Source: Chlamydiota bacterium (GTDB lineage Bacteria > Auribacterota > JACPWU01). Taken from it: a DNA stretch of 32,000 nucleotides. The notes under the pieces are model-generated. The model ran no database searches and had not been told where the DNA came from. It saw only the letters and a program-made list of their open reading frames with translations. The position numbers and the translations under genes were made by a program. Positions 8,401 through 30,735 of this stretch are shown piece after piece. The first letter of the stretch is position 1. Every line of letters begins with the position of its first letter. Location of the stretch: NCBI GenBank assembly GCA_016196885.1, contig JACPWU010000054.1:16230-48229 (forward strand), written 5' to 3'.

Positions 8401-10367
8401 GCAAGAATTTCGTCAGCATTCTCAAACTCAGTGATGGTTAGAAATTGATTGAGATCAAGTGTGGGAAGTACGCCTTCGGCGGAAGCGGGCTCTAATTCTC
8501 GGCTTTCCAATTCGCGAAGCACAGACTCAAGGTCGCTGACGGCTTCAATGGCTGCTTGAGTATTCCCCAACCCCTGCTGCCAATCTGCAAAAAGTTTAGC
8601 GTGATTCCAGTTTGAGGCCTCAATCATTTCTCGGCCCATTTGTCCTGTCGTTTGCATCCCCAGCAAATGAAGGCGTGCGATCTTGAGTAATGTGGGCAAA
8701 GGTGCTGTTTTCAAGGCGCCTGGGGCACCTCCTAATAAGCCAAACAGTTCCTCCATTTTTCTAAAATAAAGACTTCGATCATCGGGATGACTCACGCGAG
8801 GGCTGATGATCCAGTAGCCGATTTTGGCTTCTTTGAGCAATTCTTTGAGGCCGGAAGTATGAAAACCTCCAGCAACCAAGGCCGCATGGTTGATTTTTTT
8901 CTCAGAGATCAGAGCGAGAGATTTATCCAGAAAGATGTGATCGCGTTCAAGCACTTTTTCGTAGAATTTTGCGGCCGTTTTGAAAACATCCCCAAAATCA
9001 GGGGATTCGAAAGCCGTTGTTCGTTGCTCGTCCTTCGTCGCTCGTAGATACAAAGTTTTGAGTTTGGCAACAAATTCTGTGACGAAACGGTTTCCGGTAC
9101 GATCTACGGACGACGAGTGACGATAGACGGCTTCAATATCTTCCCGCTTTCCTTCGAGTCGCGCAACCCGGTCGAGAATTGCATAATTTTTCTGAATCTC
9201 TATCAATTCTCTTTCCTGATCATTTTGGATGAGGGCTTGAGTTAATTCTTCTTCGGCCTCTTTCATTTCACCGTCTAATTTTTCCCATGAAAGATTTTTC
9301 ATGAGATTCATTTGGTCCATGAGAAGTTTGAGATTTTGAAAGGTCGAACTTCCATTTTCCATACGATTCATGTATTGGCTCAAATAAAGATAATGTTCTT
9401 GATCGCTCACTTGCCCCAGGCGATATTCCAGGACATGCCTTAAAAGGCTTGTGGATTCTTCCTTGGGGAGTTTGGCTTCAAGAATCTCTAGGAAGTGAAG
9501 GTATTCCTTTTCCAGGGCTTCTGGATTCACTTGCGATTCTAATTGAACCAGATCGGCATAATTTTTTAGAGTTGGATAAGGGGTGGAGACATCCTTGCCG
9601 AATGTTTCCTTATACTGCTGGGATAATTCTTTAAAATAGGTCTGAATATCTGTTCTCGTCTCTCGGTACTGCTTTACTTTGCTCATCCAGTCGTACATTC
9701 CTTTAGAGAAAACCTTTTTCTCAAGTGCTTCAATCATCTCTTTCGAGGTTTGCCAGGCCTGTTCCTGAAGGGTGTTTTCCTCCAAAGATTTTCCCATGGC
9801 GTCAATATTGTCTACATAAACGGATAAATCTTCGATTCCGAGACCCTGTGCCTTGTCAGGTCCTTCGGTGATGAGAAAGGATTCCACGGCGTCAATATCG
9901 CTTCTCTGAAGAAATTTCTCTTGAGCGATTTGAAGCGCCTTTTTGTCTGGAAAGGTATCGAAAAAGGACATGTCCATGCGGCCTTCAGCGGCCTCTGAGA
10001 AAACATAAAAGAGGGAATTGGGATTGGAAGATGGATGCGCACGTGAAACTGTTTTTAAAATGCCTCGTATATGGGCTTGTGCTTCTGGATTGCAGTGAAT
10101 ATCTTCAATAATGAACAATACGGGACGATCCTGAAAAACATTTTTTTCGACCACTTCTCCAAAATCACTCGGAATTTTTAAATGATCCAAAGCTGCACCG
10201 AACTCTTCTGAAGGCCTCTGAAGATTCCAATCGCTCCTTTGAATGGGGGAGGATTTGGACACAGTCTGGGCTATGTTTGCATCTTGTGCAAAGGTGAAAC
10301 TACAATCGTGGGTGATAAAGGAAAGACAGACAACAAGGCTGATGATTTGACGCGCAATTTTGAACAT
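2475..10367 (-). CDS. giant (2,630 aa) multidomain secreted/membrane-anchored protein of unknown function
   Basis: Single open frame with SD GAGGAGGG ~7 nt upstream of the ATG at 10367 and a TAA stop at 2475-2477. Order of segments: N-terminal signal peptide (MFKIARQIISLVVCLSFI..FAQD); ~700-aa domain; TM ending ..LASFMGC; Pro/Thr linker; ~230-aa beta-sandwich-like domain; hydrophobic cluster containing a second signal-peptide-like segment; ~450-aa beta-rich region; two paralogous helical modules split by a Pro/Ala linker; ~300-aa C-terminal region. Confidence 0.85.
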   Translation of the reverse strand: MFKIARQIISLVVCLSFITHDCSFTFAQDANIAQTVSKSSPIQRSDWNLQRPSEEFGAALDHLKIPSDFGEVVEKNVFQDRPVLFIIEDIHCNPEAQAHIRGILKTVSRAHPSSNPNSLFYVFSEAAEGRMDMSFFDTFPDKKALQIAQEKFLQRSDIDAVESFLITEGPDKAQGLGIEDLSVYVDNIDAMGKSLEENTLQEQAWQTSKEMIEALEKKVFSKGMYDWMSKVKQYRETRTDIQTYFKELSQQYKETFGKDVSTPYPTLKNYADLVQLESQVNPEALEKEYLHFLEILEAKLPKEESTSLLRHVLEYRLGQVSDQEHYLYLSQYMNRMENGSSTFQNLKLLMDQMNLMKNLSWEKLDGEMKEAEEELTQALIQNDQERELIEIQKNYAILDRVARLEGKREDIEAVYRHSSSVDRTGNRFVTEFVAKLKTLYLRATKDEQRTTAFESPDFGDVFKTAAKFYEKVLERDHIFLDKSLALISEKKINHAALVAGGFHTSGLKELLKEAKIGYWIISPRVSHPDDRSLYFRKMEELFGLLGGAPGALKTAPLPTLLKIARLHLLGMQTTGQMGREMIEASNWNHAKLFADWQQGLGNTQAAIEAVSDLESVLRELESRELEPASAEGVLPTLDLNQFLTITEFENADEILALLNDNDESRRALTERYLTRVLIRDGYTEPLENVLDRLFPKEVPSTPSQGGSFLRVLSRVLPASIVLLIAMSLASFMGCFETEFPGATPLPISGSPTPIEVSPTPAVTPEVSPTPGVSPTPAGESPTPEVTPTPTSTEAPTPSATQTPEPSEAPSPTPVVVTPTPEPSPTPAGTPEVSPTPAGTPEASPTPAGTPEVTPTPTEVTPTPGPDTHFYSEDFNGYESFDDLLGGGWEVIYDENGNNGNTTWSIPSDGTLTVTEDGDSSTVGYSAAMNRNDLGFIDLDSSFQFEYQVTFNNANQSAFVVVYADPSNVSNLKYVNLYADPTHYAVEDSGGPDEGVPSDLQYNVAYQVRLEIVPDPLDQGNNTVRFYVDDELKSTQIVQTPAGYRPYQIGFLSSYDSGSVVYDNLTADVIPDEAPLKAEDSSAKPKSESSRGGSYGSPVGTQFWNFRFLKFSFFSILGFATLSLLAFNSSYSIFAIPVALVSILPLTSRFLKRMPRFSRAVLALTLLFMSHLALAQGAEPVTPPPASEVPLTPAVSSAPEIPREITPSAFFQYGTLGVDSGHLSANYGNWVFLGGGGRINTYVDPDLVEAFADPNYLRAQDLTLWELYKNNPLYMGYVYGLRSFGRAKIRLGIQALATPDGTWMIRPSGGAEFRLNPIINGAWFRLDPIAAVFYQPVNPLRVYGSPLPPSTLALHAQLIGGPITFHLKTAFLPDPLLQTAVQQWAAHSGNPDTAFQRGFLDELYGGGGYYLEGTQSGDTLILNAVGEPLTDIRLYLNMADYSPSRGPLASWALKAGTVVDLFSWDTVATISSPGEHGRLTNSFSPSQGVRVFFESNATLVGLGGEWLLSVGGDASSRGRFRGTASVRYSRVHPRLGRASIEIGAGNLDAYDPLTVRPAWTGSANLTLVPHAIELKRADRGTTPGARVEIGPKPEKKSTSQGVTLNEGNLAFFRTELPKRWETVIQSIKTTRDPVTHVTNAGNPVKPGTLGLDLVAITQAYALSVEPASLNSTLAISLEEAKEMIQGIVDDLSFSEKAPNGLLYDVYTMTAEKGTTAMVIEGVKQEGALATVRSNGLAAYGLVVAMEFLRENDPGYAKDPTYQALKELFHSMDFHTATLELLKTNPHLGEEPYGRLCILLAVLQADEFDLGLITQLRPPLANPPNDVQRQELEIDLLLRLSGLEARWDEYDQQIATPWLATKPQDSALALRFAGDEVLDRLKRNGYAPSDPLWTFMALSDALFSAQQAFTTPDQFWNRFWTGEHKDARGLGLRRLLDPSPAGVGTTGSVLPSVPVPAAPAEPPPVPAAPAVSPPAVPREEATAPAAQSEQAAPVPAPTDHVETPAPLSPKEVAYCNKEYDKGWEQFKAWFDASFNETGLRVGLEISSEDLGLSLLTIAQRQRLEKISFQEAQKMIKKILSTFDRMDGDTHRLFHPRYRITETSSETLSASFSPKSSVLISAGLVVAMDLYGTTHGEDDLYQNLVRRFYSQKLSQAVQEQIKSGSLRPEEPYTRLAILIALLQSPEDRPNLISLLKSPSENPTEAQVRQELEVETILGARFSRPDSWGVYYDLMAQNLLARDPLSSGEASLALNERPHEALKRFRRENRRERLKFWEKRPADLWTLLSLGDAPAASKPIHLGTTRSSFAEYWITMNEWTSAQFVFDLPVPALPRSEGKKSSSQRRGTTGKRNRPSRSFDLNQFLDDPEYRSRYLQGGGSVRRILEVVGGALNARIRSKGMDSAAAAKLTDDLAGLIVDGRQAAWVQDIANVKASIVKKDPFMKGISSKENFHILIDVRLVMEQDGLELLEILQRLPKEVYVTFVVSHEGEMDPVKKRFNLDDLRDRYRVRPTSSYALENFLQADELSDLEHVIVLGSLEKSQEYGENAECRKRLVLGNAQVTLAQMLVAAQSPEDYRALIERLVTDPEKKAALLAEIDNPENGISLKTHPSLELPLRTLDKMIQRNEAAQRSM
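7819..7908. repeat. 3 x 30-bp tandem repeat inside the Pro/Thr linker of the giant gene
   Basis: The units at 7819-7848, 7849-7878 and 7879-7908 (GGCGTTCCAGCAGGTGTTGGAGAAGCTTCA and variants) differ at a few positions. On the minus strand they encode (E/T)(A/V)SPTPAGTP-type decapeptides. Partial units flank the array. Confidence 0.9.
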
Positions 10368-13576: not shown

Positions 13577-14920
13577 ATGAATGTCATTTTTTTATCTCGC
13601 CTACAATTTGGACTGACCATTTGTTTTCACTACATTTTTCCACCCCTGAGTGTGGGGCTGGGCCTTCTTCTGGTCTTAATGGAAGGAATGTATCTTTGGA
13701 CGAAAAATCCGCTTTATCAGAAGATGACGCAATTCTGGGTGCGCATTTTTGGCCTCACCTTCGCGATCGGAGTGGCCTCTGGCATTGTGATGGAATTTCA
13801 ATTTGGGACCAACTGGTCTTCTTATTCGCGTTATGTCGGGGACGTTTTTGGAAGTGCGCTAGCTGCAGAGGGAATTTTCGCTTTTTTTCTCGAGTCTGGA
13901 TTTTTAGCCATTCTTTTATTTGGATGGAATAAAGTCGGACCCAAGACTCATTTTTTCTCGACGCTTATGGTTTCGCTTGGGTCCATGTTCAGTGCGGTTT
14001 GGATTGTGGTCGCCAATTCCTGGATGCAAACGCCTGCTGGTTTCCACCTGGTGGAAAGGGGAGGACAGGTTCGTGCCGAGATTACAAATTTTTGGAAATT
14101 GTTCTTCAATCCTTCCTCCATGGGAAGATTGAGCCATGTGATCACCGGATGTTGGCAGGCCGGCGCTTGGTTCGTTCTAAGCGTCAGCGCCTATTACTTA
14201 TTGAAAAGAAAGCACGAAGATTTTGCAAAGGCCTCGATTAAAATTACATTGGTGCTAGCCTTCATTTCCTCCATTTTACAAATACTTTCAGGTCACGCCA
14301 ACGCGGTGATCGTAAGCCGTTATCAGCCGGCGAAGCTCGCGGCCATGGAGGGGCATTATCCTGTGAATGCGCCAGCCAATTTTAATTTATGGGGTTGGGT
14401 GGATGGAAAAGAAGAGAGGGTTCGAGGAGGGTTGGCCTTGCCAGGTTTTTTAAGCTTTCTGGTTTCCGGAAAATTTGACACCCCTATCAAAGGGCTCAAC
14501 GCTTTTCCTCCCCAAGATCGTCCTCCCGTTCAAGCTACTTTTCAGTGTTATCATGGAATGTTGCTCATTGGGATTGCTCTTTTTCTGTTTAGTCTTTGGG
14601 GTGTGATTCTCTGGAGGAAAGGAAAACTTTTTCAAAGTCGCTGGCTTTTAAAACTTTTTGTTTTGTCCGTTTTAGGCCCTCAACTGGCCAATCAATTAGG
14701 CTGGATGACGGCCGAGGTGGGAAGACAGCCTTGGATTGTCTATGGGCTTCTTCGAACCTCTGAAGGGGTCTCGCCCATTCTTCGTTCAGGACAAGTTCTT
14801 TTCTCCATCATTTTATTTTCTCTCGTGTATCTTTTATTATTTGTTTTATTCATTTATTTGTTGGATCAAAAAATTCGAAAAGGTCCTGAGAGTCATCAAG
14901 AAACGTTGCATCGGGCGTAA
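13577..14920 (+). CDS. cydA: cytochrome bd-type quinol oxidase subunit I
   Basis: 447 aa and polytopic. It starts with the conserved N-terminus [23 protein letters not shown]. It also has ..EFQFGTNW.., [20 protein letters not shown], and a short Q-loop. Confidence 0.93.
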
Positions 14921-14971
14921 TGCGGAAACGTCAACAGAGGTTGCTGCTAGGCTGTTCGAAAATGTTGTTTT

Positions 14972-15004
14972 CCCCTCCCTATTATGGGAGGGGTTAGGGG
15001 AGGG
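14972..15004. repeat. G/C-tract hairpin repeat in the cydA-cydB spacer
   Basis: CCCCTCCC-tattat-GGGAGGGG followed by TTAGGGGAGGG. Related GGAGGGGTTAG-type hairpins occur at 17568-17645. Confidence 0.7.
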
Positions 15005-15037
15005 AATGTTGCAATGACTAAAGCAAGGTGAGTCGCT

Positions 15038-16060
15038 ATGCATTTAGACCTTCATATCATCTGGTTTATTTTGGTCGGAATGCTCATGACGGGTTACGCC
15101 CTGTTAGATGGCTTTGACCTGGGCGTAGGGGCTTTGCATCTTTGGACCCGCACGGATCAAAATCGGCGTATCATGCTCAATGCGATTGGTCCTGTGTGGG
15201 ATGGAAATGAAGTCTGGTTGGTAACGGGGGGAGGTGCTTTGTTTGCGGCTTTTCCAGAAGTTTACGCAACTGTTTTTTCAGGTTTTTACGAAGCGTTTAT
15301 GTTGCTTCTTTTTGCTCTGATTTTTAGAGCGGTCGCCATTGAATTTAGAAGCAAGCGTCCCGGAGAAAAATGGCACCTTTTGTGGGATGTCAGTTTTAGC
15401 GTGTCGAGTATTCTTTCAAGCTTTCTAATCGGAGTGGCGCTTGGAAATTTAGCGTGGGGAATTCCCCTTTCGGATCACAAAGAATTTATGGGAAATTTTT
15501 TCACGCTCCTTCATCCCTACAGCATTTTAGTCGGAATTCTTACAGTCGCTCTTTTTATGATGCATGGGGCCATTTACATTGTTCTTAAGACAGAAGGAGC
15601 ACTTCATGAACAAGCCCGAGGCTGGGTTAAAAATACCATGATTTTCTTTATTGTTATGTTTGCAATGACGACGCTGGCCACGCTTCTTTATGCCCCTCAA
15701 ATGTCGGATGTCATTCGCACTCACCCTGTTTTATTTCTGGTTCCTCTGCTCAACATTCTTTTCATCGCGAACATCCCTCGCGAGATCTCAAAAGGAAGAG
15801 ACTTCCGAGCCTTTCTTTCTTCATGCTTTACCGTCCTGACCCTCATGGCCCTTTTTGCCATAGATGTATTCCCCAATCTGGTTTATTCCAATCCCCATCC
15901 TGAAAACAGCCTCACCCTTTACAATGCGGCGTCCTCTCCTGAAACCCTTCATATGATGCTCATCATTGCTGCTCTCGGGATTCCCTTGGTGCTGGCCTAC
16001 ACCGTCAGCATTTACTGGATTTTTAGAGGGAAGGTGAAATTGGAAGAGACGAGTTATTAA
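15038..16060 (+). CDS. cydB: cytochrome bd-type quinol oxidase subunit II
   Basis: 340 aa. The motifs LDGFDLGVG, GPVWDGNEVWL and the polytopic profile are present. SD AAGGTGAG lies upstream of the ATG at 15038. Confidence 0.92.
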   Translation: MHLDLHIIWFILVGMLMTGYALLDGFDLGVGALHLWTRTDQNRRIMLNAIGPVWDGNEVWLVTGGGALFAAFPEVYATVFSGFYEAFMLLLFALIFRAVAIEFRSKRPGEKWHLLWDVSFSVSSILSSFLIGVALGNLAWGIPLSDHKEFMGNFFTLLHPYSILVGILTVALFMMHGAIYIVLKTEGALHEQARGWVKNTMIFFIVMFAMTTLATLLYAPQMSDVIRTHPVLFLVPLLNILFIANIPREISKGRDFRAFLSSCFTVLTLMALFAIDVFPNLVYSNPHPENSLTLYNAASSPETLHMMLIIAALGIPLVLAYTVSIYWIFRGKVKLEETSY

Positions 16061-16102
16061 TCCATTGTCATTCTTTTCCGTGAATGCTACATTCCTTCCA
16101 CC

Positions 16103-16837
16103 ATGAGTATTCAAGCGGCTCAAAGGCCCCCAGTAGAAATTCCAGACATTCGAGAGCAGGGTGCTCCCAAAGAGGGAACGCCTCAAGTGCTTGACCGCCG
16201 GCTTTTTATGCAGCTTCAGGTCTTTACGGGTTGTCCCCATCCACAACCTCTGGTAGAAGCAGTCAAAAAATCTGGGCTCGAATGTGTTTTGTATTTAGAT
16301 ATAAATGATGCTCAGGGGATTGGCCTCTTGACTTTGACAGAAGATCCCTCTGTCTTGACCCAAACAGCGAGGCAACTTTTACTCTCAGAGCCTTTTGTTC
16401 GGCTCACGCCAATGCGAGAATTCACGATGCTCGGCCGCACTTACTCGAGCGGTCATGAGCAAAATTTAGAGGATTGGCTTTTAGCCAAATCCCGCCGTAA
16501 CCTTTCGAATCCAACGCTCTCCTGGGCCGTCTGGTATCCTTTAAAGCGAAAACCAGAATTTGAACTGCTCTCGAAAGACGAGCAGCGGGCCATTCTCATG
16601 GAGCATGCCAAATTGGGCATGAGTTATGGGACGGGTGGTTTAGCTCATGATGTTCGGCTGGCTTGTCATGGTCTAGATCCTAACAACAATGAATTTGTCA
16701 TTGGGATTGTTTCCTCAAAACTGCATTCCATTTCTCGCCTGGTCGAAGACATGCGTAAAACTCAACAAACGGCCAAATACATCGAATCCATGGGCCCCTT
16801 TTTTGTTGGCCAAGTTTTGTTCTCCTCTGTAAAATAG
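16103..16837 (+). CDS. chlorite dismutase family protein (Cld/HemQ-like haem enzyme)
   Basis: 244 aa. It reads W..WYPLKRKPEFELLSKDEQRAILMEHAKLG (proximal-His context) ...DVRLACHGLDPNNNEFVIGI...MRKT....YIES.GPFFVG. This is the typical C-terminal ferredoxin-like half of PF06778-type proteins. Confidence 0.75.
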   Translation: MSIQAAQRPPVEIPDIREQGAPKEGTPQVLDRRLFMQLQVFTGCPHPQPLVEAVKKSGLECVLYLDINDAQGIGLLTLTEDPSVLTQTARQLLLSEPFVRLTPMREFTMLGRTYSSGHEQNLEDWLLAKSRRNLSNPTLSWAVWYPLKRKPEFELLSKDEQRAILMEHAKLGMSYGTGGLAHDVRLACHGLDPNNNEFVIGIVSSKLHSISRLVEDMRKTQQTAKYIESMGPFFVGQVLFSSVK

Positions 16838-16842
16838 ATGGG

Positions 16843-17427
16843 ATGACGCCGCCCTCTTCTCAACAGCCGACAAAGATCGTGATTAACGGGGATATTTATC
16901 TTTCTGAACCTCTAGAAAAAGACATTCCTTCCATCATTCATCATCTTCAGGAAAAAGAAATTTATGATCTGACGCTTCAAATTCCGTATCCCTACGACAA
17001 AAAAAATGCGCAAGATTTCATCACCCTTGTTCAAAGCCGCAAAAAGCGATATGGCCGCTTGATGGACTGGGCCATTCGCAATTCCAGAAATGAGCTTGTG
17101 GGTATGATCAGTTTTCAGGGGATTTCTTCACGGGATTTGGAAAATGACGAGATCGGCTTCTGGCTTGCCAAACCCTATTGGAATCAGGGCATCATGACCG
17201 AGGTCTTGAAAAAATTTGTGGAATTTGGATTTAAAGAATATCGTTACAGACGTTTTACCCTCAGCATTTTTGTCTTTAACGAGGCCTCTTCTAAAGTAGC
17301 CGAAAAGTGTGGCTTTGTCTTCCAAGGTCTGGCCGAAAAGGTGCACTGCAAAGAGGGTCAATTGATAGACTTAAAACTTTACGCGATACAAAATCCCAAA
17401 CATCCTCCTGGGGTGTCTTTTAATTAA
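16843..17427 (+). CDS. GNAT family N-acetyltransferase (RimJ/RimL-like)
   Basis: 194 aa. EIGFWLAKPYWNQGIMTEVLKKFVEFGFKEY...RFTLSIFVFNEASSKVAEKCGFVFQG is an acetyl-CoA-binding-motif-like Q/RxxGxG/A region with the typical beta-bulge context. Confidence 0.8.
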   Translation: MTPPSSQQPTKIVINGDIYLSEPLEKDIPSIIHHLQEKEIYDLTLQIPYPYDKKNAQDFITLVQSRKKRYGRLMDWAIRNSRNELVGMISFQGISSRDLENDEIGFWLAKPYWNQGIMTEVLKKFVEFGFKEYRYRRFTLSIFVFNEASSKVAEKCGFVFQGLAEKVHCKEGQLIDLKLYAIQNPKHPPGVSFN

Positions 17428-17567
17428 TACAAACACGTTGATTCGCGTGTCATCTCCAGGAGCGCTTTTGCGGGCGAGAGATCTTTTTAAGGGAGGCTGC
17501 ATTGCCGGTGGCAATGCAAAGCCGACCGTGGTAGTAGATGTTTTTTTACATTTCTACTCTTAACTAA

Positions 17568-18344: not shown

Positions 18345-18695
18345 ATGGAAAAAATATACAAAAGAATGCTTGATGGCATGAAGAAAAAAGAGAATCAAAA
18401 GAGAAGGACGAAAAAGGAAAAATGGTTTCTTTATATTTTGAGATGCAATGATCTTTCTTTGTATACTGGGGTCACCAAAGACATTGAAAAACGTTTTGAA
18501 GTGCACGCTCAAGGAAAAGGGGCTCGGTACACGCGTACACGTCTTCCTCTAGAGCTTGTTTATCAGGAAACTTGTAAAACAAGAACTGCAGCCCTGATTC
18601 GAGAATGTGCTGTGAAGACCTTGCCGAGAGTTAAGAAGTTAGCCCTCATTAAGGGGGTTGCTGCCAAGAGAAAGCGTGGTATCGGAAAAAGCTAA
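18345..18695 (+). CDS. GIY-YIG nuclease family protein (UPF0213/YhbQ-like), intact
   Basis: WFLYILRCNDLSLYTGVTKDIEKRFEVHAQGKGARYTRTRLPLELVYQE......ALIRECAVKTLPRVKKLALI is a full GIY-YIG core with a Lys-rich N-terminal extension. Confidence 0.85.
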   Translation: MEKIYKRMLDGMKKKENQKRRTKKEKWFLYILRCNDLSLYTGVTKDIEKRFEVHAQGKGARYTRTRLPLELVYQETCKTRTAALIRECAVKTLPRVKKLALIKGVAAKRKRGIGKS

Positions 18696-19857: not shown

Positions 19858-20103
19858 CTAATGAGCGTTTGAGTGACGCTGACCGGTATGATAATTCTGA
19901 TCATGCCCATGTCTGCCATATTGGGCATTGTAGTTCATACCGGTACCGTGATATCCATCCGTACCATTGTAGCTCATACTGCTGCCATGATATCCCCCCG
20001 TGCCTCTGTTATGATGGCTACCCATGCTTGAGCAGATTCCCGTTGAAGCCAAAACTAGCAAAATTGAAAAACCGACGCCCAGTCCCGACAAAAGAATTTT
20101 CAT
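19858..20103 (-). CDS. small secreted His/Gly/Tyr-rich protein
   Basis: 81 aa. A strong SD (AAGGAGGG) lies ~6 nt upstream of the ATG at 20103. The signal peptide is MKILLSGLGVGFSILLVLAS. The mature part carries GYHG(S/T).M.YN repeats and about a dozen His residues. It lies 77 nt downstream of the cytochrome-porin candidate on the same strand. Confidence 0.7.
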   Translation of the reverse strand: MKILLSGLGVGFSILLVLASTGICSSMGSHHNRGTGGYHGSSMSYNGTDGYHGTGMNYNAQYGRHGHDQNYHTGQRHSNAH

Positions 20104-20180: not shown

Positions 20181-21416
20181 TTAAAACATTGAATCGATAT
20201 TTAAACTAACCACATGTTTCTTTACTTCCTCCGATTCCGCATCAATATGACCGATAAGGCCAATTCGCATATTATCTCTTGGGAAATACCAAATCGCGGG
20301 ACTGAGCACTAAATGATCAATATCGGACGCATCAGAGGAGTGAACCCAATCGGCTTGAAAGGCACAATACCAATGCTCATTGATGGTATAGCCCAAAATG
20401 GATGCAATTCCCTGGAAGTCCGTGTCCTCAAGGCTCATCGTACTAAGATCGAAATCATCGTCGTGCCCAAAGAAATACGCAAACTGTAAGTCCCACTTTT
20501 CGAGGTAACGAATATTCACAGCGGGAGAAAGACGCCAGAAATCATCCTCCGTCTCTCCCGAGGGGGCCCCGGTTACTTCGTCGGTGAGCTGCTTGGTATC
20601 CGTTCCAATAAGTCCCCACAGCGAAACGGCCGAGCCGGCGAAGTCCCCTTCCTCGACAACATAGTACTTGGCCATCCCCCAAAAATTTTTCTTATCATTG
20701 GGATCCTTGATCTCGGCGCCGTTAGAGACACCCACTTCCAGCACGAACGGGCCCTTCCAGCCATAAAGTCCAATTGCTGGAACCGGACCCGTCATAGATA
20801 CAGAGTCATCGCCTGTCCCATTCGCTGATTGAACATCCGAAAGAATCTCATGTTCTGCATTCGTCAATTCACTGAATTTGGAAAGGGCGTTCCACTGCCA
20901 CGTTGACATTTTCCCTACTCGCACATTCAGAAGGGAGGTGCCAAAAAGATTATGAAATGCAACTTGAAAAAATTCATTGCTGATTTCATCCTCATCCACC
21001 TCTGTCTCAATCTGGACGGACGTATTTTTGAAGATCGTCCCTGCGGTATATAATGAGACCGCATTGGGATTGCCAATATCAACACTCGTCTTTGTCTTTC
21101 CGTTTTCTTCCAGACCATTGCCTTCGACAGCAATCGGCGTTACACTCACTCTGATTCCAAAAATATCCGTGAGTTCGTTGAGATTGAGATTATTTCCAAT
21201 AATTTGCTTGGCAACATCGTCGCCATCATCCGTCCCGGGCATTTGAAGCCCATTCAATGCGAATTTATCACCAAAATAATTCAGACGCGGATAAGCCGTG
21301 TGACAAGTCTGGCAACTGACACCGTATTTACGTGCCCATTGGGAAGTCGCATCACTTTCCTTCACGGCATAAAACGATACTAACACGACAAACGCTAATG
21401 AGATTAGCCTCTTCAT
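20181..21416 (-). CDS. outer-membrane beta-barrel protein with a single N-terminal CxxCH haem-c motif (Cyc2-like fused cytochrome-porin candidate)
   Basis: 411 aa. The signal peptide is MKRLISLAFVVLVSFYAVKESDA. CQTCH is encoded at 21300-21314 (residues 35-39). The remaining ~370 aa show alternating-hydrophobic strand patterns, and the protein ends ...VVSLNIDSMF with a terminal Phe, the OMP C-terminal signature. Confidence 0.6.
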   Translation of the reverse strand: MKRLISLAFVVLVSFYAVKESDATSQWARKYGVSCQTCHTAYPRLNYFGDKFALNGLQMPGTDDGDDVAKQIIGNNLNLNELTDIFGIRVSVTPIAVEGNGLEENGKTKTSVDIGNPNAVSLYTAGTIFKNTSVQIETEVDEDEISNEFFQVAFHNLFGTSLLNVRVGKMSTWQWNALSKFSELTNAEHEILSDVQSANGTGDDSVSMTGPVPAIGLYGWKGPFVLEVGVSNGAEIKDPNDKKNFWGMAKYYVVEEGDFAGSAVSLWGLIGTDTKQLTDEVTGAPSGETEDDFWRLSPAVNIRYLEKWDLQFAYFFGHDDDFDLSTMSLEDTDFQGIASILGYTINEHWYCAFQADWVHSSDASDIDHLVLSPAIWYFPRDNMRIGLIGHIDAESEEVKKHVVSLNIDSMF

Positions 21417-21624: not shown

Positions 21625-22319
21625 TTTTGAAACCTCTGAAAAACCCTTCAAATGACTGATATAATATCAGGAAGAACGAATGGAGGGCAAGATACAAATG
21701 AGTTTCGGGATGTATGAGGATGAACACAGACGACAGAAACGAACAATGCTTGATGAAGTGGAAAGAGTTATTGATTTCGCAAACTAGAGATCAGTCATAT
21801 TGAAGAACATGATCATAACCATTTTAAAGGGATGGTGCCCTCAGGCACACGAAGGGTCTATGCAGATAAGGCGTACTATTCACAGGCTCATAGGGAATAT
21901 CTGAGGGAACGAAAGATTAAAAACTGTATTTTAGCAAAAGGATATAGAAATCGACCCTTGAGTAAGCGTCAAGAAAATCAAAACCGCACATGGGGCAAAA
22001 TAAGAAGTGCCATTGAACCTCGGATCAATGATTTGAAGAATTGGTGCTCGATGCAGCGACTAAGGTACTATAGCCTCGTCAGGAATCGGCTATGGATTAT
22101 GATATGTGGTTTGGCATGTATTGGAAAGAGGGCGATTCAGTTGCAAGCGATGTCAACTTAAGATACGAGTGGCAGTGAGAAAAAATGCTTTCAGTTGAAA
22201 GAAAGAACGAATGATAGATTCAAAATTCTTTTTTTGATCTCGTTTTCAGTTTGCACATTGCAAAAAACTTCAGCGATAGGTTGTTTGTAATAATTAATCG
22301 TTTTCCAGAGGTTTCAAAA
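21625..22319 (+). mobile_element. internally deleted IS5-family-type insertion sequence (~695 bp) with intact terminal inverted repeats
   Basis: TTTTGAAACCTCTGAAAAAC (21625-21644) versus GTTTTCCAGAGGTTTCAAAA (22300-22319) is 19/20 complementary. The element encloses N- and C-terminal transposase fragments only. Confidence 0.7.
21680..22161 (+). pseudogene. IS5-type DDE transposase, central part deleted
   Basis: The N-terminal fragment MEGKIQMSFGMYEDEHRRQKRTMLDEVERVIDFAN stops at 21785-21787. The C-terminal fragment (21832-22161) reads VYADKAYYSQAHREYLRERKIKNCILAKGYRNRPLS..QNRTWGKIRSAIEPRINDLKNW..MQRLRYYSL.RN. This is the ADKGY...RxxVE...K part of the DDE fold. The DD-containing middle is absent. 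Confidence 0.7.
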
Positions 22320-22415
22320 TTAAAGTGGAAAATAAGGACGGGAAAAGAAATTTTTTATTTACTAACCGTTGAAAATGAGGCATAATTTACGGTGATATGA
22401 AGATTGAGAGGGATC

Positions 22416-23558
22416 ATGAAAAACTATCAGCGGCTTTTTTATCCACCTAAATCAAGTTTCTTTCTGTTGGGTGTGAGAGGGGTTGGTAAGAGTACCCTGA
22501 TAAAGCACGTGTTTAAAAATGCCAAAATAATCAATCTCCTAGATGAGGCTCTTTATCAACTTTATCTTTCAAAGCCTCAATCTTTTGTGGAGGATTTGTC
22601 ACTGGTCAAGCCTGGGGATTGGGTTGTCGTAGATGAAGTTCAGCGTTTACCTCAGCTTCTGAATGAAGTACACCGTTTTATTGAAGAGAAGAAAATAAAA
22701 TTTGCGCTTTTAGGCTCAAGCGCAAGAAAATTGAGACGCGCAGGTGTGAATCTTTTAGGCGGAAGAGCTTTGCAAAAATGGATGCATCCCTTTCTTTTGG
22801 AAGAGTTAGGCGATGATTTTTCATTGGATAAAGTGTTTAGGAATGGATCAATCCCCCTCATTTGGACTTCCGTCAATCCCAAAGAACAACTTTTGGCGTA
22901 CATGCAACTCTATTTGAAAGAAGAGATTCAAGCCGAAGCCATTGTGAGAAATTTACCAGGGTTTGCGCGCTTTTTACCGGTCGCAGCTCTTTTTCATTCG
23001 CAGGTCATTAATGTCGAAGGTCTGGGCAGAGATTGTGGCGTTGCCCGATCTACGGTTGAAGGATACTTACAGATTTTAGAAGATACGCTGATTGCATTTC
23101 AAGTTCCTGCTTATGAGAATAAATTAAGGGTTCGTCAAAGAGCTCATCCAAAGCTTTACTGGTGCGATTCGGGTATTGTTAGGGCTGCAAAAAGACAATT
23201 AGAGGGGCTTGCGATTGAGGAAAAAGGTGCTTTATTTGAAGGGTTTATCGCTCAGACGTTGAAAGCCTATCGAGAGCTTGGACGGCTTGATTGTGATCAA
23301 ATTTCTTATTGGTCGGCGGGTAAGAATTCTGTAGAGGTTGATTTTGTGATTGAGAGAGGGAGAGAACTCATTGGCATCGAAGCCAAATCAGGCACGGATC
23401 CCGAAAAGAAATGGTTTGCCGGTTTATCAGCCTTAGAAGACAGTGTGAAATTAAAACGTTCCATCCTTGTTTATACAGGCAAAAGAAAATACAAACATGA
23501 TTCTGGTGTAGAAGTGTTGCCTCTACAAGATTTCATGAAAGAAGTAGAACGGTTTTAA
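22416..23558 (+). CDS. AAA_14/DUF4143 ATPase (intact copy)
   Basis: Walker A is LLGVRGVGKST and Walker B is VVVDEVQRLP. The DUF4143 region is FARFLPVAALFHSQVINVEGLGRDCGVARSTVEGYLQILEDTLI. The C-terminus has ..EVDFVIE....IGIEAKSG. GAGAGGG precedes the ATG at 22416. Confidence 0.85.
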   Translation: MKNYQRLFYPPKSSFFLLGVRGVGKSTLIKHVFKNAKIINLLDEALYQLYLSKPQSFVEDLSLVKPGDWVVVDEVQRLPQLLNEVHRFIEEKKIKFALLGSSARKLRRAGVNLLGGRALQKWMHPFLLEELGDDFSLDKVFRNGSIPLIWTSVNPKEQLLAYMQLYLKEEIQAEAIVRNLPGFARFLPVAALFHSQVINVEGLGRDCGVARSTVEGYLQILEDTLIAFQVPAYENKLRVRQRAHPKLYWCDSGIVRAAKRQLEGLAIEEKGALFEGFIAQTLKAYRELGRLDCDQISYWSAGKNSVEVDFVIERGRELIGIEAKSGTDPEKKWFAGLSALEDSVKLKRSILVYTGKRKYKHDSGVEVLPLQDFMKEVERF

Positions 23559-24098: not shown

Positions 24099-24800
24099 AT
24101 GAATAATACTATCAAGCGTGTCATTAAAGCTTTGGAAGGCAAAATGGAGAGTTTCCCTCTAGGCGGTGGAACCGCTCTATCTCTTTTTTATTTTCAACAC
24201 CGTCTTTCTTACGACTTGGATTTCTTTACCCAAACATTTTCTCGAAAAGAGGTAGAGAAAATAATAACAGAGCTTTCATCAACTTTAAAAGCGGATGTTC
24301 AATTAACGGCTGAAGTCTCAAAAAGAGAAAGAGCGCGGATCTTGGTTTACAATCTAATATTGGACAAAGAGAATTCCTTAAAAATTGATTTTATTGAGGA
24401 TCTTTTTAAAAGGATTGGAACAGTCAATGTCTTTAACGGAATCCCGGTGCTCTCACTAGAAGATATTTACTTAAGAAAAATTTATGCGGCTTGTGGCGTT
24501 TCTGAAATGCTTGACGAGGCAGGACGAAAAATATTTTTGGGAGGTAGGCAAGAAGTGAAAGATTTTTTTGATCTCTTCTTTTTATCAAAAACATTTATGA
24601 GTCTTTCCAAATTTGCCAGCGATTTTTGCAGCTCTTCTGAAAAGGAAAGCATCATTGCCTGGTATAGAAAATACAATTGCCCTCAGATGAAGATGGGACT
24701 CTCTGAAATTCAAACAGATAAAAGAGTGAGCTATCAGGAAATGGAACGCCATTTTAAGGATGAGGTAGAAGCGTTGGTTCGTAAAGAGGTTGAAGGATGA
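24099..24800 (+). CDS. nucleotidyltransferase, AbiEii/AbiGii (DUF1814) toxin family
   Basis: 233 aa. FPLGGGTALSLFYFQHRLSYDLDFF is the hGG(T/S)x(9-13)DhDh pol-beta-fold NTase motif as found in AbiEii. A further acidic motif is KIDFIED. Confidence 0.7.
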   Translation: MNNTIKRVIKALEGKMESFPLGGGTALSLFYFQHRLSYDLDFFTQTFSRKEVEKIITELSSTLKADVQLTAEVSKRERARILVYNLILDKENSLKIDFIEDLFKRIGTVNVFNGIPVLSLEDIYLRKIYAACGVSEMLDEAGRKIFLGGRQEVKDFFDLFFLSKTFMSLSKFASDFCSSSEKESIIAWYRKYNCPQMKMGLSEIQTDKRVSYQEMERHFKDEVEALVRKEVEG

Positions 24801-25369
24801 AAAATTTATTTTGGGATCGAAAAACGAGTTTAAATAAAGTTAAAAACATTCTCAAAAATCCGGACCATCCTCAATTTATTGAATATGCCGCTCTCGTTCT
24901 TTCTAGAACCAACGAGATCAAAAAGATCTTCTCAGAATTTCTCGATAAAAAAGTCTTTTGCATCCATTGGCGAAAAATCAAAAGCAGAATGCGAAAGAAT
25001 AAATGGGGTGATACCAGAATAGACTTATGGGATGAGGTTTATAAAGTTTTGTCCAAGGATTTAGGGATCAAGGAGTCCAGCAAGGAAGCAGTTCCTCGCC
25101 ACTCCAAGGCTTATGAAATAGGTCAGCGGATCGAAACAGAGCGAGACAAAAGGGGCTGGAATCAGAAAGAGCTGGCTCAGAGAGCAGGTGTCTCTCAGCA
25201 ACTTATTTCTTTCATGGAAAGAGGCTCTCTTAATTTTTCGTTTGAGACTTTGATGAAAGTGACATCAGCATTGGGTCTTCAGTTTGAGATCATCCCGAAG
25301 AAGCATCGTAAGACTGGAAATGTAACGGGCCTTCTCTCGGGTGAAGGAGGTAAGACTCAAACGAGGTGA
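24797..25369 (+). CDS. XRE-family helix-turn-helix protein with unknown ~110-aa N-terminal domain
   Basis: The start overlaps the NTase stop (ATGA). The C-terminal half GWNQKELAQRAGVSQQLISFMERGSLNFSFETLMKVTSALGL is a canonical HTH_3/XRE motif. Confidence 0.7.
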   Translation: MKNLFWDRKTSLNKVKNILKNPDHPQFIEYAALVLSRTNEIKKIFSEFLDKKVFCIHWRKIKSRMRKNKWGDTRIDLWDEVYKVLSKDLGIKESSKEAVPRHSKAYEIGQRIETERDKRGWNQKELAQRAGVSQQLISFMERGSLNFSFETLMKVTSALGLQFEIIPKKHRKTGNVTGLLSGEGGKTQTR

Positions 25370-26994: not shown

Positions 26995-27876
26995 ATGGAT
27001 CATTTGGAAAAATTAGAGAGTCAATCGGTCTACATTCTCAGGGAAGGCTATAGCCAGTTTAAGAATTTGGTGATGCTCTGGTCCATTGGCAAGGACAGCA
27101 CCGTCCTTTTGTGGTTGGCCCGCAAGGCTTTTTTCGGACATGTTCCCTTTCCTCTGGTCCATATCGACACGGCTTACAAAATCCCCGAAATGATTCAGTA
27201 CCGCGATCAATTGGCCTTGGAATGGCATTTGAACATGGTGTATGGCCAGAATACGGAAGCGCTTAAAAACAAGCAGACTTTCCCAGATGGGGCTTTGGAT
27301 CGCATTAGTTGCTGTAAGACCCTCAAGACTGATGCGCTTCGCAATACCTTATCAGGGGCTTGGCCACGGTATCGTTTGGATCACGTTCAAAAAAAATATG
27401 TGCTGGATGAAAATAAAGAGCCTTATACCGGAGTGATTGTCGGAGTCCGAGCCGATGAAGAGGGAAGTCGCTCCAAGGAAAGATATTTCTCTCCCCGTGA
27501 CAAGAGAAATGATTGGAATGTGGGAGATCAGCCGCCTGAACTCTGGAATCAATTCAAAACAGATTTTGCTCCCGGAACACATATTCGGATTCACCCCTTG
27601 CTAGATTGGACGGAATTAAATATCTGGGAATATATTGGTCGGGAAAATATTCCTGTAGTCCCTCTTTATTTTGATCAGGGGAAGGGAGAGCGTTATCGTT
27701 CTCTGGGCTGCTTCCCTTGTACCTTCCCCGTAAAATCGACTGCCAAAAATGTGGAAGATATTATTACAGAATTAAAAACCGGAAAATTTTCCAACATTGC
27801 CGAACGTGCGGGACGAGCTCAAGACAAAGAAGATGGGGGAGGACTTGAGACTTTAAGGCGTGAAGGGTATATGTGA
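26995..27876 (+). CDS. cysD: sulfate adenylyltransferase subunit 2
   Basis: 293 aa. [11 protein letters not shown]..., the PP-loop [13 protein letters not shown], ...[11 protein letters not shown], and the C-terminal RAGRAQDKE....LE.LRREGYM are all characteristic of CysD. Confidence 0.92.
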
Positions 27877-27909
27877 CGGAAGTTCAAAGGTTCAAAGGTT
27901 TAAAGGTTG

Positions 27910-29715
27910 ATGAAAAAAGATCATACACAAGCAGCTAAAATGAATATCGTCATCGTCGGCCATGTTGATCACGGCAAAAGCACGGTGATCGGCCGACTTC
28001 TCGCGGACACGCATTCTCTTCCTCAGGGGAAACTTGAGCAGGTTAAAAATGAATGTGCCCGAAACTCCAAGCCCTTTGAATATGCCTTTCTTCTGGATGC
28101 ATTAAAAGATGAACAATCCCAAGGGATTACCATTGATACGGCGCGCTCGTTTTTTAAGAGTGAAAAACGCGAGTATATTATCATTGATGCCCCGGGGCAC
28201 ATTGAATTTTTAAAGAACATGATCAGCGGTGCCGCTCGCGCGGAGGCAGCGCTTCTGGTGATTGATGCAAAAGAAGGGGTTCAGGAAAATTCCAAGCGCC
28301 ATGGTTATTTGCTTTCGATGCTGGGCATTCGTCAAGTTGCGGTGTGTATCAACAAAATGGATTTAGTTCAGTACAGCGAAAAGATTTTTAAAGAAATTGA
28401 AAAAGAATACAGAGCCTTTTTAAAACCGATTGGTCTTAAGCCCAAAGCATTTATTCCCATTGCAGCCATGTTGGGTGAAAACATGGTCGAGGCTTCTAAA
28501 AATCTTTCCTGGTATCACGGCAAAACCATTTTAGAAATGTTGGATTCTTTTGAGAAAGCGCCCAGTTTAGATGCTAAACCTTTTCGCATGCCGGTTCAGG
28601 CCATTTATAAATTCACAGAAGAAGGGGATGATCGCCGTATTGTATCAGGTCGCGTCGAATCAGGTTCGATTGCGGTAGGGGACTCTGTCGTGTTTCTTCC
28701 TTCTCACAAAAGATCTGAAGTGAAAACGATTGAAGAATTTCATGCGCCCGCAAAAAAACGTGCCGCGGCGGGTCACTCTATTGGATTTACTCTGAAAGAA
28801 CAGATTTACATCAACCGTGGGGATGTGATGTGCAAGGGCGATGAAGAGCATCCCTTGGTCAGTTCTCTTTTTCAGGCCGAGATTTTCTGGATGGGAAGAG
28901 ACCCGATGGTGATGAACAAGGAATACAAACTCAAAATTGGGACCGCAGCTGTTCCTGTTCAGATCCATGAAATTAAACGAGTTTTCGACGTGTCTCAATT
29001 AAAAAAATCCGAACGCAAAAAGCAAATTGATCGCCATGAAGTGGCGCAATGCATTTTAGAATGCGCTCGGCCGATTGCCTTTGACCTAGCGGGTCAAATA
29101 GAAGCCACGGGTCGATTTGTCATTGTGGATCAATATGATATCTCAGGCGGAGGCATTATTTCGGCCTTGGTGAAGGACAAAGAAGCAGATCTTCGCGACG
29201 AAGTTGAGGCCCGAGAAATGAATTGGGATTTTAGCATTGTGGACCCCAAAGAACGTGAAGCTCGATACGGGCATCCTCCAAAATTTATTTTGCTCACGGG
29301 AAAAGTGGGTGTTGATAAGAAAAACATTGCGAAAGAGATCGAAAAAACCCTTTTTGAAAGAGGGGCCAAAACTTATTTTTTAGGCATGGGAAATCTTTTG
29401 AGAGGCCTAGACGTAGATCTTGAAAAACACAAATCTGAGCGCCATCAACAAGTGCGTCGCATGGGAGAAGTGGCTCATCTTCTCTTGGATGCAGGTCTAA
29501 TCATTTTGGCGACAGGAAGCAATCTCAACGATGAAGAATTGAAAATCCTCCAAGAGGTAACAGACCGATCTTCCATTCTGGTGGTGAATGTGGGTGAAAA
29601 TCATTTTCGCGAAGGAATCGTGGATTTAAATTTAAACGCGAAAGATGCTGCTTCTAGAAATGCTAAAAAGGTGATGGAATTTTTAGAATCAGAAAAGATT
29701 ATTGGTAAAGTTTAA
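27910..29715 (+). CDS. cysN: sulfate adenylyltransferase subunit 1 (GTPase) fused to an APS-kinase-like domain with degenerate P-loop
   Basis: G1 is [10 protein letters not shown]3 is DAPGH and G4 is NKMD. The C-terminal ~150 aa align by eye to APS kinase ([20 protein letters not shown]) but carry [11 protein letters not shown] in place of G.SGSGKST. ATG at 27910; TTG at 27907 in the ORF track. Confidence 0.85.
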
Positions 29716-29793: not shown

Positions 29794-30735
29794 ATGAATG
29801 TTAATCGCTTTGCTCTCAAAGAGTTATGTCTTGACCTCTCCAGACCTGAAATCACTTTTTTGGTGGGTGCCAGACAAGTGGGCAAAACTTATTTGATGAA
29901 AGAAGTGGAGGCCTTTGCGCGGTCCCAAGGAAAGAAGACCGTTTATTTTAATTTGGAAATTCCTTCTGATCTTTTGAAATTTGCGGGCTCCGAGGAAGAC
30001 ATTTTTAAAACTTTAACTACCTCTGCAGAGGTAGTTTTTTTAGATGAATTTCACTATTTGAAAAATGCGTCCCATTTTTTGAAGGCGGTTTATGACAGCC
30101 ACTTGGGTGTAAAAATTTTTGCTTCCGGTTCTTCCTCCTTAGAGCTTCATAACCATTTGCTTTGTCTCTTGGCGGAGAATCAAGGAAGTCTTGTCTCGGT
30201 ATGGAATTTAGCCAGTGAGGTGGGGTTGACGGCAAAAACCATCGAAAAATATTTGATGATTTTGGAGCAAACCTATGTTTGTTATTCGTGTACCAGTTTT
30301 TCAACGAATTTGGGAAATGAATTAAAGAAATCCAGAAAATATTATTTTTATGACTTGGGTATTCGCAATGTCATTTTAAAGGATTTTGAATATGACATTC
30401 GCCAGAGGAGGGACAAGGGTGCTTTATATGAATCTCTCGTTTTTCTGGAGCTCTTACAAAAGATTTCTCCCAACACCTCTCTTCATTTTTGGAGAACCAA
30501 ACAAAAATCAGAAGTTGATTTTGTGAAGGTGGTGAATCGTAAACCCATTCCGATTGAGGTCAAAAGTTCTCTCTCTGGGTGTGCAATTCCTTCAGGGATG
30601 AACGATTTTTTAAATCGATATCCTCATACGAAAGAAGGAGTTGTGGTGAATGAAAGTTACAAGGGAGAAGTCAAACATGGCTCGGCAGTGATTCGATTTA
30701 TTCCTTGGAAAGAGATAGGTCAAGGGATGGGATAA
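29794..30735 (+). CDS. AAA_14/DUF4143 ATPase, shortened copy (probable in-frame internal deletion)
   Basis: Walker A is LVGARQVGKT and Walker B is VVFLDEFHYL. The sequence GSSSLELHNHL runs directly into the DUF4143 segment LLAENQGSLVSVWNLASEVGLTAKTIEKYL. About 70 aa present in the 22416-23558 paralogue are missing. The C-terminal ..EVDFV....IPIEVKS is retained. Confidence 0.7.
   Translation: MNVNRFALKELCLDLSRPEITFLVGARQVGKTYLMKEVEAFARSQGKKTVYFNLEIPSDLLKFAGSEEDIFKTLTTSAEVVFLDEFHYLKNASHFLKAVYDSHLGVKIFASGSSSLELHNHLLCLLAENQGSLVSVWNLASEVGLTAKTIEKYLMILEQTYVCYSCTSFSTNLGNELKKSRKYYFYDLGIRNVILKDFEYDIRQRRDKGALYESLVFLELLQKISPNTSLHFWRTKQKSEVDFVKVVNRKPIPIEVKSSLSGCAIPSGMNDFLNRYPHTKEGVVVNESYKGEVKHGSAVIRFIPWKEIGQGMG

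Follow-up and report, generated by a model that had tools for sequence, protein, structure and literature searches.

A predicted Cyc2-type cytochrome–porin of variant signature, encoded by an orphan paralog in a groundwater bacterium

Main

Cyc2 proteins are used by iron-oxidizing bacteria to take electrons from dissolved iron. We analysed a 32,000-nucleotide stretch of DNA (the window; contig JACPWU010000054.1) from an uncultured groundwater bacterium deposited as Chlamydiae, and focus here on one of its genes, the Cyc2-like gene. Its motifs, their spacing, transitive full-length homology and a predicted fold support membership of the encoded protein in the Cyc2-type superfamily of fused monohaem cytochrome–porins. 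We class the gene as a variant rather than a plain member of Cyc2, because it fails the strict published signature; the sub-clade in which it falls also has barrel motifs and a set of partner genes of its own. It is also an orphan paralog, as a second copy in the same assembly is embedded in a putative electron-transfer cassette that is missing from the window. We put at roughly three in four the probability of the explanation as a whole, in which a Cyc2-type fused cytochrome–porin persists as an orphan duplicate and works by the mechanism proposed below.

Results

The protein is identical to NCBI protein HYS08_05040 (P0001), from a metagenome-assembled genome (MAG) named "Chlamydiae bacterium". 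An earlier reading of the window from its letters (the original prediction) had described a 411-amino-acid precursor with a signal peptide, a single CQTCH haem c attachment motif 12 residues past the cleavage site and an amphipathic β-strand pattern ending in Phe, and had proposed a Cyc2-type fusion of a monohaem cytochrome and a porin. The coordinates and length of the open reading frame (ORF) were verified on the minus strand (Table 1), and each of these features held up on closer analysis. The N terminus, MKR-LISLAFVVLVSFYAV-KESDA followed after the cleavage point by TSQW, has the n/h/c layout of a Sec-type signal peptide with a 15-residue hydrophobic core, as read by inspection and not with a dedicated predictor. 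An A-x-A directly before SQW is conserved in the family alignment (A1, described below), and residues 2–16 form an isolated helix in the AlphaFold2 model. A cut after A23 makes C35 the twelfth residue of the mature protein, and CQTCH, which lies exactly where proposed, is the sole CxxCH in the protein. At the other end the sequence terminates in the β-signal-like ...LNIDSMF, and a terminal Phe is shared by 100 of 123 full-length relatives.

The published definition of Cyc2 (Keffer et al. 2021, PMC8406198) comprises a signal peptide, one CXXCH, an upstream AXPXFAR[Q/K][T/Y], a downstream PXL, a length of at least 365 amino acids and a 16-stranded porin that threads onto OprO/OprP; the screen applied in that study was PXFAR[Q/K][T/Y]. 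The window protein has the signal peptide, the single N-terminal CXXCH, the PXL, the length and a predicted 16-stranded, OprO/OprP-like barrel. It shares these with A. ferrooxidans Cyc2 and M. ferrooxydans Cyc2 PV-1 (clusters 1–3 of McAllister 2020 / Keffer 2021), together with the placement of PxL four residues past CxxCH, the ARKY core, identical spacing and a size of about 400 amino acids. No family was assigned to the protein in Pfam and NCBIfam scans. The oligogalacturonate porin KdgM (PF06178) was considered and set aside as a generic barrel resemblance, with 14.9 bits against a cut-off of 22 and an E value of 0.021 over residues 288–365.

A word-indexed search over 5.8 billion proteins returned 33 relatives, all unannotated, which were aligned as A1. 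These include a 59%-identical paralog from the same MAG (P0004; HYS08_04535), a protein from a second "Chlamydiae" MAG (P0005) and several proteins from "Deltaproteobacteria" MAGs. The 33-sequence alignment has a strict N-terminal SQWARKY-xxx-CxxCH-xxx-PRLN-x-FG-xx-F-xx-NGYQ and a conserved C-terminal R-x-M-F. Every family member with an intact N terminus conserves CxxCH and, more broadly, SQWARKY..CxxCH..FPRLN.FG, so the N-terminal motif is not a product of chance. In an exhaustive search of 1.84 billion cluster representatives with a hidden Markov model (HMM) of the family, 3,975 clusters reached E≤1e-3, with matches along the entire length of the proteins, and 1,776 reached E≤1e-10. Among the best 150 representative matches, the nearest 40 or so carry the S/A-Q-W variant and 90 carry P-x-F, 64 of these with the strict published regular expression. 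Intermediate motifs occur among the relatives (ATAAFARKY, AIASWSRKY and SQFARKY), and P0033, the most distant member of the family, bears the strict PxFAR[QK][TY].

We next compared the family with A2, an alignment of 62 full-length strict-motif proteins. Profile–profile alignment of A1 and A2 with hhalign gave a probability of 100% and an E value of 6.3e-76 over 399 columns, from the signal peptide to the last strand. Identity between the window family and A2 is about 22%, which is compatible with Cyc2 because accepted Cyc2 clusters are 15–23% identical to one another (Fig. S7, PMC8406198). The A2 proteins, from Acidobacteria and other MAGs, are longer (about 430–530 amino acids) through loop insertions. 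Most of the matches in a profile search with A2 were metagenome proteins without a name; the few that had one came from Acidobacteria MAGs, and cultured iron oxidizers were absent from these matches. For ten of the canonical-motif matches to the family, the cluster members are annotated only as hypothetical proteins. Within a plasmid collection, the N terminus of the window protein matched Ralstonia megaplasmids directly at an E value of about 1e-3, and Ralstonia is among the genera listed with Cyc2 homologues (PMC8406198). The protein of Ralstonia solanacearum MolK2 carries ANPIFARQT-gln-CASCH-tvy-PEL, and that of Caballeronia sp. SBC1, annotated "cytochrome C", carries ALPAFARQT-gla-CVACH-vsf-PEL; the three residues between signature and CxxCH are common to the window, Ralstonia, Caballeronia and P0033 proteins. 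Aligned by hhalign, the window family matched the Ralstonia and Caballeronia proteins with 97.3% probability (E 2e-11) over the 50–62-residue cytochrome module only, whereas the A2 profile matched the Ralstonia protein over 280 columns reaching into the barrel (E 1.9e-16). The Cyc2-type reading of the original prediction was thus upheld, by the motifs and the length of the protein, by profile homology and the predicted fold, and by the genes that surround the paralog.

To assess the fold, we ran AlphaFold2 with the 33-sequence family alignment. The model has a mean predicted local distance difference test score (pLDDT) of 83.8 and a predicted template modelling score (pTM) of 0.82, with a short helical N-terminal module surrounding the haem motif and 16 long β-strands across residues 86–410, so that the barrel expected from the amphipathic pattern is confidently predicted and its strands can be counted. 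Foldseek searches of the PDB matched the 16-stranded porins OmpU, PorB, VhChiP, OmpF and OmpC, and the top query TM-scores (TMq) fell to OprP (2o4v) and OprO (4rjw/4rjx), at 0.57–0.59 with E values of about 1e-9; OprO and OprP are the threading templates reported for Cyc2 (PMC8406198). The OmpU, PorB, OmpF, OprP and OprO porins have the 16-stranded barrel in common with the model (E 1e-9 to 2e-11, TMq 0.47–0.59), but they are only 8–14% identical to the window protein and have neither a haem module nor detectable sequence homology to it. A PDB sequence search with the family profile gave nothing meaningful and detected no solved relative, and there was no solved Cyc2 relative among the 50 best Foldseek PDB matches.

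The closest relatives differ from the window copy in their genomic surroundings. All six nearest relatives (P0002–P0007) have a gene for a monohaem class-I cytochrome c of 95–128 amino acids directly downstream. Five of them (P0002–P0006) share a cassette that consists of a secreted protein of 195–232 amino acids, the Cyc2-like gene, the monohaem cytochrome c and a multihaem protein of about 505 amino acids, the last seen in the four loci with contigs extending far enough; of this cassette, P0007 has only the downstream cytochrome c gene. The multihaem protein is membrane anchored, with six CxxCH, one longer-spaced motif and an NrfH/NapC/TorC-like N-terminal module. The upstream secreted protein (about 215 amino acids) lacks a haem motif and matches nothing in Pfam or NCBIfam. 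Paralog P0004 lies in such a cassette on L001, a contig of the window's assembly (GCA_016178005.1). There the cassette adjoins a 1,018-amino-acid fused ResB–CcsB of System II cytochrome c maturation, and futalosine-pathway menaquinone genes are nearby; a gene for haem c maturation, which the original prediction had left to be looked for elsewhere in the genome, is therefore present in the same MAG. None of the three outcomes that the original prediction had named as fatal to it was observed, since the model has a barrel, similarity to Cyc2-type proteins is strong and a maturation gene exists. Because the tetranucleotide correlation between the window and L001 (r 0.982) exceeds that between the window's own halves (0.925), the orphan and a full cassette plausibly belong to one genome.

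On L006, the contig of the closest relative, the cassette adjoins a Crp regulator and an aa3-type oxidase (COX1/2/3). The same region (L006 1–9107) also encodes a molybdopterin oxidoreductase of 1,155 amino acids and a cytochrome c of 607 amino acids that carries an EB_dh domain; the region could be a respiratory island tied to the Cyc2-like system. We compared 38 non-redundant loci drawn from many phyla. In 14 of them a monohaem ORF lies on the same strand no more than 100 bp downstream, in many cases with a multihaem protein after it, and in 12 there is no CxxCH ORF within 4 kb.

A small periplasmic cytochrome c gene directly downstream, as in most relatives of the window protein, is also a feature of Cyc2 loci, and the patchy cross-phylum distribution of Cyc2, which suggests horizontal transfer, recurs in the sub-clade. 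The sub-clade differs from Cyc2 in its signature, A-x-S-Q-W-A-R-K-Y, which lacks the Pro and Phe found in PxFAR[QK][TY], in its own barrel motifs PNWLQLFTAG, NWFxLGYHN, SGRLRMIP and C-terminal RxMF, and in a cassette that contains the NrfH/NapC-like multihaem protein and the 215-amino-acid secreted protein rather than rusticyanin/cox genes; the window copy differs further in being orphaned and in having lost several of the sub-clade motifs. In Caballeronia a c-type cytochrome gene follows the Cyc2-type gene, in the same order as in the sub-clade cassette, whereas the neighbouring genes for a high-potential iron–sulfur protein (HiPIP) and a dihaem c4-type cytochrome are unlike the sub-clade. 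On this 734-kb replicon (Caballeronia sp. SBC1 pSBC1_3; L045 2948–5965) the HiPIP, the Cyc2-type "cytochrome C" and the dihaem c-type cytochrome are encoded consecutively, a compact iron-oxidation-like module in a cultured soil bacterium.

The window copy is an orphan paralog. Among ORFs of at least 50 amino acids in the 32 kb, the Cyc2-like gene alone bears a CxxCH, and a downstream c-type cytochrome gene is accordingly missing. The slot that this gene occupies in the six nearest relatives is filled by an 81-amino-acid ORF with a signal-peptide-like N terminus and a Gly/Ser/His/Tyr-rich tail (16 G, 10 S and 9 H, with repeated GYHG). It has no Pfam or NCBIfam family and is not conserved at the other loci; one possibility is a metal-binding peptide of the periplasm. 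We considered whether it is a degraded cytochrome c, which is unsupported as it has no similarity to the cassette cytochrome c. A G-rich, Shine–Dalgarno-like run precedes the Cyc2-like gene, and its guanine–cytosine content (46%, against 44% for the window) bears no trace of recent foreign origin.

Upstream lies a transposase gene that we call truncated because its PF01609 match spans only part of the profile (Table 1). Beyond it is an AAA_14/DUF4143 ATPase gene. The window holds three such genes on the plus strand, one of them a fragment (1886–2389, 22404–23558 and 29794–30735), L001 holds another (16145–17467), and their repetition may be the sign of a variable or mobile region. An AbiEii-type nucleotidyltransferase toxin gene overlaps a helix-turn-helix (HTH)-domain gene (24099–25369, plus strand), likely as a type IV toxin–antitoxin pair, and a GIY-YIG gene lies at 18345–18695. 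Together with the transposase fragment, these genes suggest a mobile stretch, or one rich in defence genes, as the setting of the Cyc2-like gene. Elsewhere in the window are a giant ORF of 2,630 amino acids (2475–10367, minus strand) with no Pfam match at E≤0.001, and a sulfate-activation pair (26995–29715, plus strand) made up of a PAPS_reduct/CysD-like gene and, after it, the gene for a CysN-type GTPase that carries a partial APS-kinase domain as a fusion.

The original prediction had also remarked on a bd oxidase about 4 kb away. The distance is right (cydA 13577–14920 and cydB 15038–16060, about 4.1 kb off), but a partnership is not borne out, as cydAB is encoded on the other strand, six unrelated genes separate it from the Cyc2-like gene, and cytochrome c is not an electron donor to a quinol oxidase. 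We therefore rejected a functional link; the proximity is probably coincidental. A chlorite-dismutase-family (HemQ-like) gene directly follows cydAB (13577–16837, plus strand).

In a scan of GTDB species representatives, the sub-clade was found in 36 species across at least ten phylum-level groups, all of them uncultured MAGs, with labels that include Lentisphaerae, Zixibacteria, Nitrospinota, Nitrospirae, Deltaproteobacteria, Aminicenantes, Bacteroidota/Ignavibacteria, Elusimicrobia, Kiritimatiellales and Marinimicrobia, among others. This patchy distribution is compatible with the horizontal transfer already described for Cyc2 (PMC12442345). Neither "Chlamydiae" MAG (GCA_016178005.1 and GCA_016178055.1) appeared in the scan, and the papers searched contained no report of Cyc2 in Chlamydiae and no mention of either accession. 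Self-hit aside, no Chlamydiae-labelled protein is among the 120 best relatives of the window's CydA; those with names, at 65–73% identity, are seven proteins from Candidatus Omnitrophica/Omnitrophota MAGs and two from Ignavibacteriaceae. These sequence comparisons cast doubt on the "Chlamydiae" label, which has no independent support from them: either the taxonomy is doubtful or cydAB was transferred. Because cydAB can be transferred, the CydA relatives do not refute the label. Surveys with FeGenie already list iron oxidation and reduction genes in subsurface Zixibacteria, Omnitrophica and Ignavibacteriales MAGs (PMC8478452), which makes Cyc2-like genes in such lineages less novel.

Table 1 Features of the Cyc2-like gene, its product and neighbouring loci (window positions unless a contig is named)
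Feature	Position	Strand	Basis or remark
Cyc2-like gene, complete, 411 amino acids, ATG start	20181..21416	-	ORF listing and sequence; stop codon 20181-20183
Signal peptide, residues 1-23 (MKRLISLAFVVLVSFYAVKESDA)	21348..21416	-	n/h/c layout by inspection; cleavage after A23 inferred
Cytochrome module, residues 24-60: variant Cyc2 signature, haem site, PxL, N.FG..F..NG	21237..21347	-	Best-conserved segment in the family
Variant of the Cyc2-defining motif, A23-T-S-Q-W-A-R-K-Y31	21324..21350	-	Compared with AxPxFAR[Q/K][T/Y] (PMC8406198)
CQTCH haem c attachment motif, residues 35-39 (C35, C38, H39)	21300..21314	-	Sequence
PxL motif, P43-R-L45, Pro four residues past His of CxxCH	21282..21290	-	Script check; position as in PMC8406198
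Predicted 16-stranded β-barrel porin domain, residues 86-411	20184..21161	-	AlphaFold2 and Foldseek PDB matches
Predicted strands 1-8: residues 86-104, 107-129, 132-140, 145-154, 164-170, 212-221, 224-231, 244-252			AlphaFold2
Predicted strands 9-16: residues 263-278, 285-304, 308-319, 332-344, 349-359, 368-380, 383-392, 401-410			AlphaFold2
Degenerated loop motif, residues 178-185: LSKFSELT, family SGRLRMIP	20862..20885	-	R180K, L181F, R182S, P185T, counted in the 12 deviations at conserved columns
Secreted Gly/Ser/His-rich ORF, 81 amino acids, 77 bp downstream, same strand	19858..20103	-	Strong AAGGAGG ribosome-binding site
DDE transposase fragment, 109 amino acids, about 400 bp upstream of gene	21832..22161	+	PF01609, profile positions 77-197 of 200 only
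Secreted protein of about 215 amino acids, unknown family, directly upstream of the Cyc2-like gene	L001 9313-9960	+	Equivalents in L003, L006, L007, L046
Protein of 145 amino acids, unknown family, strand opposite to cassette	L001 13287-13724	-	Seen in L001 through L004

Discussion

By the mechanism that we propose, Sec would export the precursor, with cleavage after A23; ResB–CcsB (System II), encoded elsewhere in the genome, would link haem covalently to the two cysteines of the motif (C35 and C38), H39 serving as the axial ligand; and the C-terminal, Phe-ending strand would lead to insertion of the barrel into the outer membrane by the β-barrel assembly machinery. On the periplasmic side, the haem module would lie at the mouth of the pore or within it. 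The haem would exchange one electron with a redox-active solute, most probably Fe2+, that enters the pore, and the electron would be passed on to a small soluble periplasmic cytochrome c. For the window copy, the relay proteins would have to be borrowed from the paralog's cassette, namely the monohaem class-I cytochrome c and the NrfH/NapC-like membrane multihaem protein, which would link it to the menaquinone pool. We infer localization, haem loading, substrate and direction of electron flow, drawing the steps from c-type cytochrome biogenesis, outer-membrane protein assembly and Cyc2 biochemistry. MtrAB, MtoAB and PioAB likewise move electrons across the outer membrane with a β-barrel and c-type haem, and a CymA/NapC-type inner-membrane partner of the kind they use also occurs in the paralog cassette. 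Those systems thread a separate decahaem cytochrome through a 26-strand barrel, however, whereas the window protein would carry a single haem in one chain with a 16-strand barrel, and the sequences are not similar. We therefore rejected an identity as an MtrB/MtoB/PioB porin, given the 16 strands, the fused haem motif and a window with no decahaem gene.

Several observations weigh against the explanation that we favour; they concern the direction of electron flow, the state of this copy and its place within Cyc2. Oxidation of Fe(II) is the favoured direction by analogy with every characterized Cyc2. The NrfH/NapC-type quinol dehydrogenase in the paralog cassette, however, fits outward flow at least as well. 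Electrons would then run from menaquinol through the NrfH/NapC-like protein, the soluble cytochrome c and the porin haem to an acceptor outside the cell, for instance Fe(III) in soluble or chelated form, and the system would be a minimal conduit for extracellular respiration rather than an iron oxidase. The pairing of the Cyc2-like gene with an NrfH/NapC/TorC-like membrane cytochrome throughout the clade's cassette points this way, as do the menaquinone genes that adjoin the cassette in L001 and a pyruvate:ferredoxin oxidoreductase, typical of anaerobic metabolism, in the neighbourhood in a sister MAG. Energetics would allow it: given the potential of menaquinone, transfer from the quinol to a c-type haem at about +200 mV is downhill. 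The redox potential of Cyc2 PV-1 is +208 mV (PMC8406198). Yet all Cyc2 proteins characterized so far oxidize Fe(II) (PMC8406198, PMC10654088), the aa3-type oxidase next to the cassette in L006 fits the cyc2–cyc1–cox logic of iron oxidizers, and CymA-type proteins have also been proposed to run in reverse in iron oxidizers (PMC10654088). We regard outward flow as a serious but doubtful alternative.

A second group of observations concerns the window copy itself, which may be impaired. Across the other 31 members of the family, 75 columns are each at least 85% conserved. The window protein departs from the conserved residue at 12 of these columns, compared with 0–3 in its five closest relatives, and six of the changes (W119A, Q121S, F123Y, W149F, R180K and R408D) fall at positions that are invariant in all 31 others. 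Four conserved arginines are lost (R180, R182, R390 and R408), two of them with the SGRLRMIP loop. Distances to two outgroup sets are about 15–20% larger than those of its sisters, with the excess concentrated in the barrel. A tblastn search of the window with every cassette protein found only the Cyc2-like gene itself, and scans for promoters and terminators around the gene gave background levels equal to those of shuffled controls.

Such a pattern could mean that this duplicate is decaying or silent in function, selection having been relaxed after duplication or transposition away from its partners and an open reading frame surviving that no longer serves as a conduit. The absence of cassette partners, the adjoining truncated transposase, the replaced residues with the lost loop and the longer branch would all be expected of it. 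Against this, the 411 codons run without a frameshift or stop, the haem module is 75% identical to those of the sisters and keeps all motif residues except F42Y, the C-terminal Phe is retained, the AlphaFold2 model is confident and a Shine–Dalgarno-like run lies upstream. Orphan copies are, moreover, common in the family (12 of the 38 loci), and stand-alone cyc2 genes beside transposases are known in Acidithiobacillus (PMC10654088). We consider a silent duplicate unlikely. With the reading frame intact and the structure model confident, sequence and model indicate relaxed or shifted constraint after the gene left the cassette, and not outright decay. The window copy is either a specialized or a weakened version that must borrow its paralog's partners, and within the sub-clade the gene is an atypical orphan paralog of uncertain activity.

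The last points concern membership. The strict upstream signature is not kept, with five of its seven specified positions retained and P→S and F→W at the other two, and PxFAR[QK][TY] accordingly fails. Single Ralstonia-type sequences have barrels that cannot be aligned to that of the window protein, and barrel homology to this cluster is transitive only, bridged by A2. Homology was measured against strict-motif proteins and those of Ralstonia and Caballeronia, rather than against the A. ferrooxidans or PV-1 Cyc2 or the FeGenie HMMs. That the protein represents instead an independent, uncharacterized cytochrome–barrel family, Cyc2-like by convergence, as the original prediction had allowed for its WARKYG..CxxCH N terminus, is very improbable: the lack of Pfam and NCBIfam matches, the failed regular expression and the confinement of alignments with individual Ralstonia and Caballeronia proteins to the first ~60 residues would suit it, but it is contradicted by the full-length match to strict-motif proteins, the identical spacing of all three motif elements, the bridge from the A2 profile to the Ralstonia barrel and a continuous series of intermediates (AAFARKY, ASWSRKY) that makes the motif a variant of the Cyc2 signature.

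We therefore retain the reading of a Cyc2-type cytochrome–porin in an orphan duplicate. A more ambitious version, which we think a long shot, would give a lineage of the Planctomycetes–Verrucomicrobia–Chlamydiae (PVC) group a full conduit from outer membrane to quinone, composed of the Cyc2-like porin, cytochrome c, the NrfH-like protein, System II and menaquinone, as well as a neofunctionalized second copy in which a His-rich secreted peptide replaces the cytochrome c and the arginine-rich loop has been remodelled. The phylum Chlamydiae is regarded as obligately host-associated. If the host is truly chlamydial, such a conduit would bring iron-based extracellular electron exchange, a trait of free-living lithotrophic or respiratory bacteria, into such a phylum; this angle is striking only if host assignment and function in vivo are confirmed.

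Cyc2 is the main marker gene for inferring microbial iron oxidation from metagenomes. The regular-expression screen behind the reference Cyc2 tree would have dropped the S-Q-W sub-clade, because the Pro and Phe of the signature are absent from it, and this sub-clade makes up about 40 of the 150 best clusters at 50% identity. Surveys and phylogenies that rely on the PxFAR screen may thus overlook some of the Cyc2 diversity present in groundwater and sediments. The conserved partner is a quinol dehydrogenase of NrfH/NapC-like type, and not cox or rusticyanin, which raises a testable question about the direction of electron flow in non-classical hosts. The two paralogs constitute a natural experiment, one conservative and borne on a cassette, the other an orphan without four conserved arginines and a loop motif, and comparing them could reveal the barrel residues on which Cyc2 function depends. 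The finding should be of use both for marker-gene work on the iron cycle and for structure–function studies of Cyc2.

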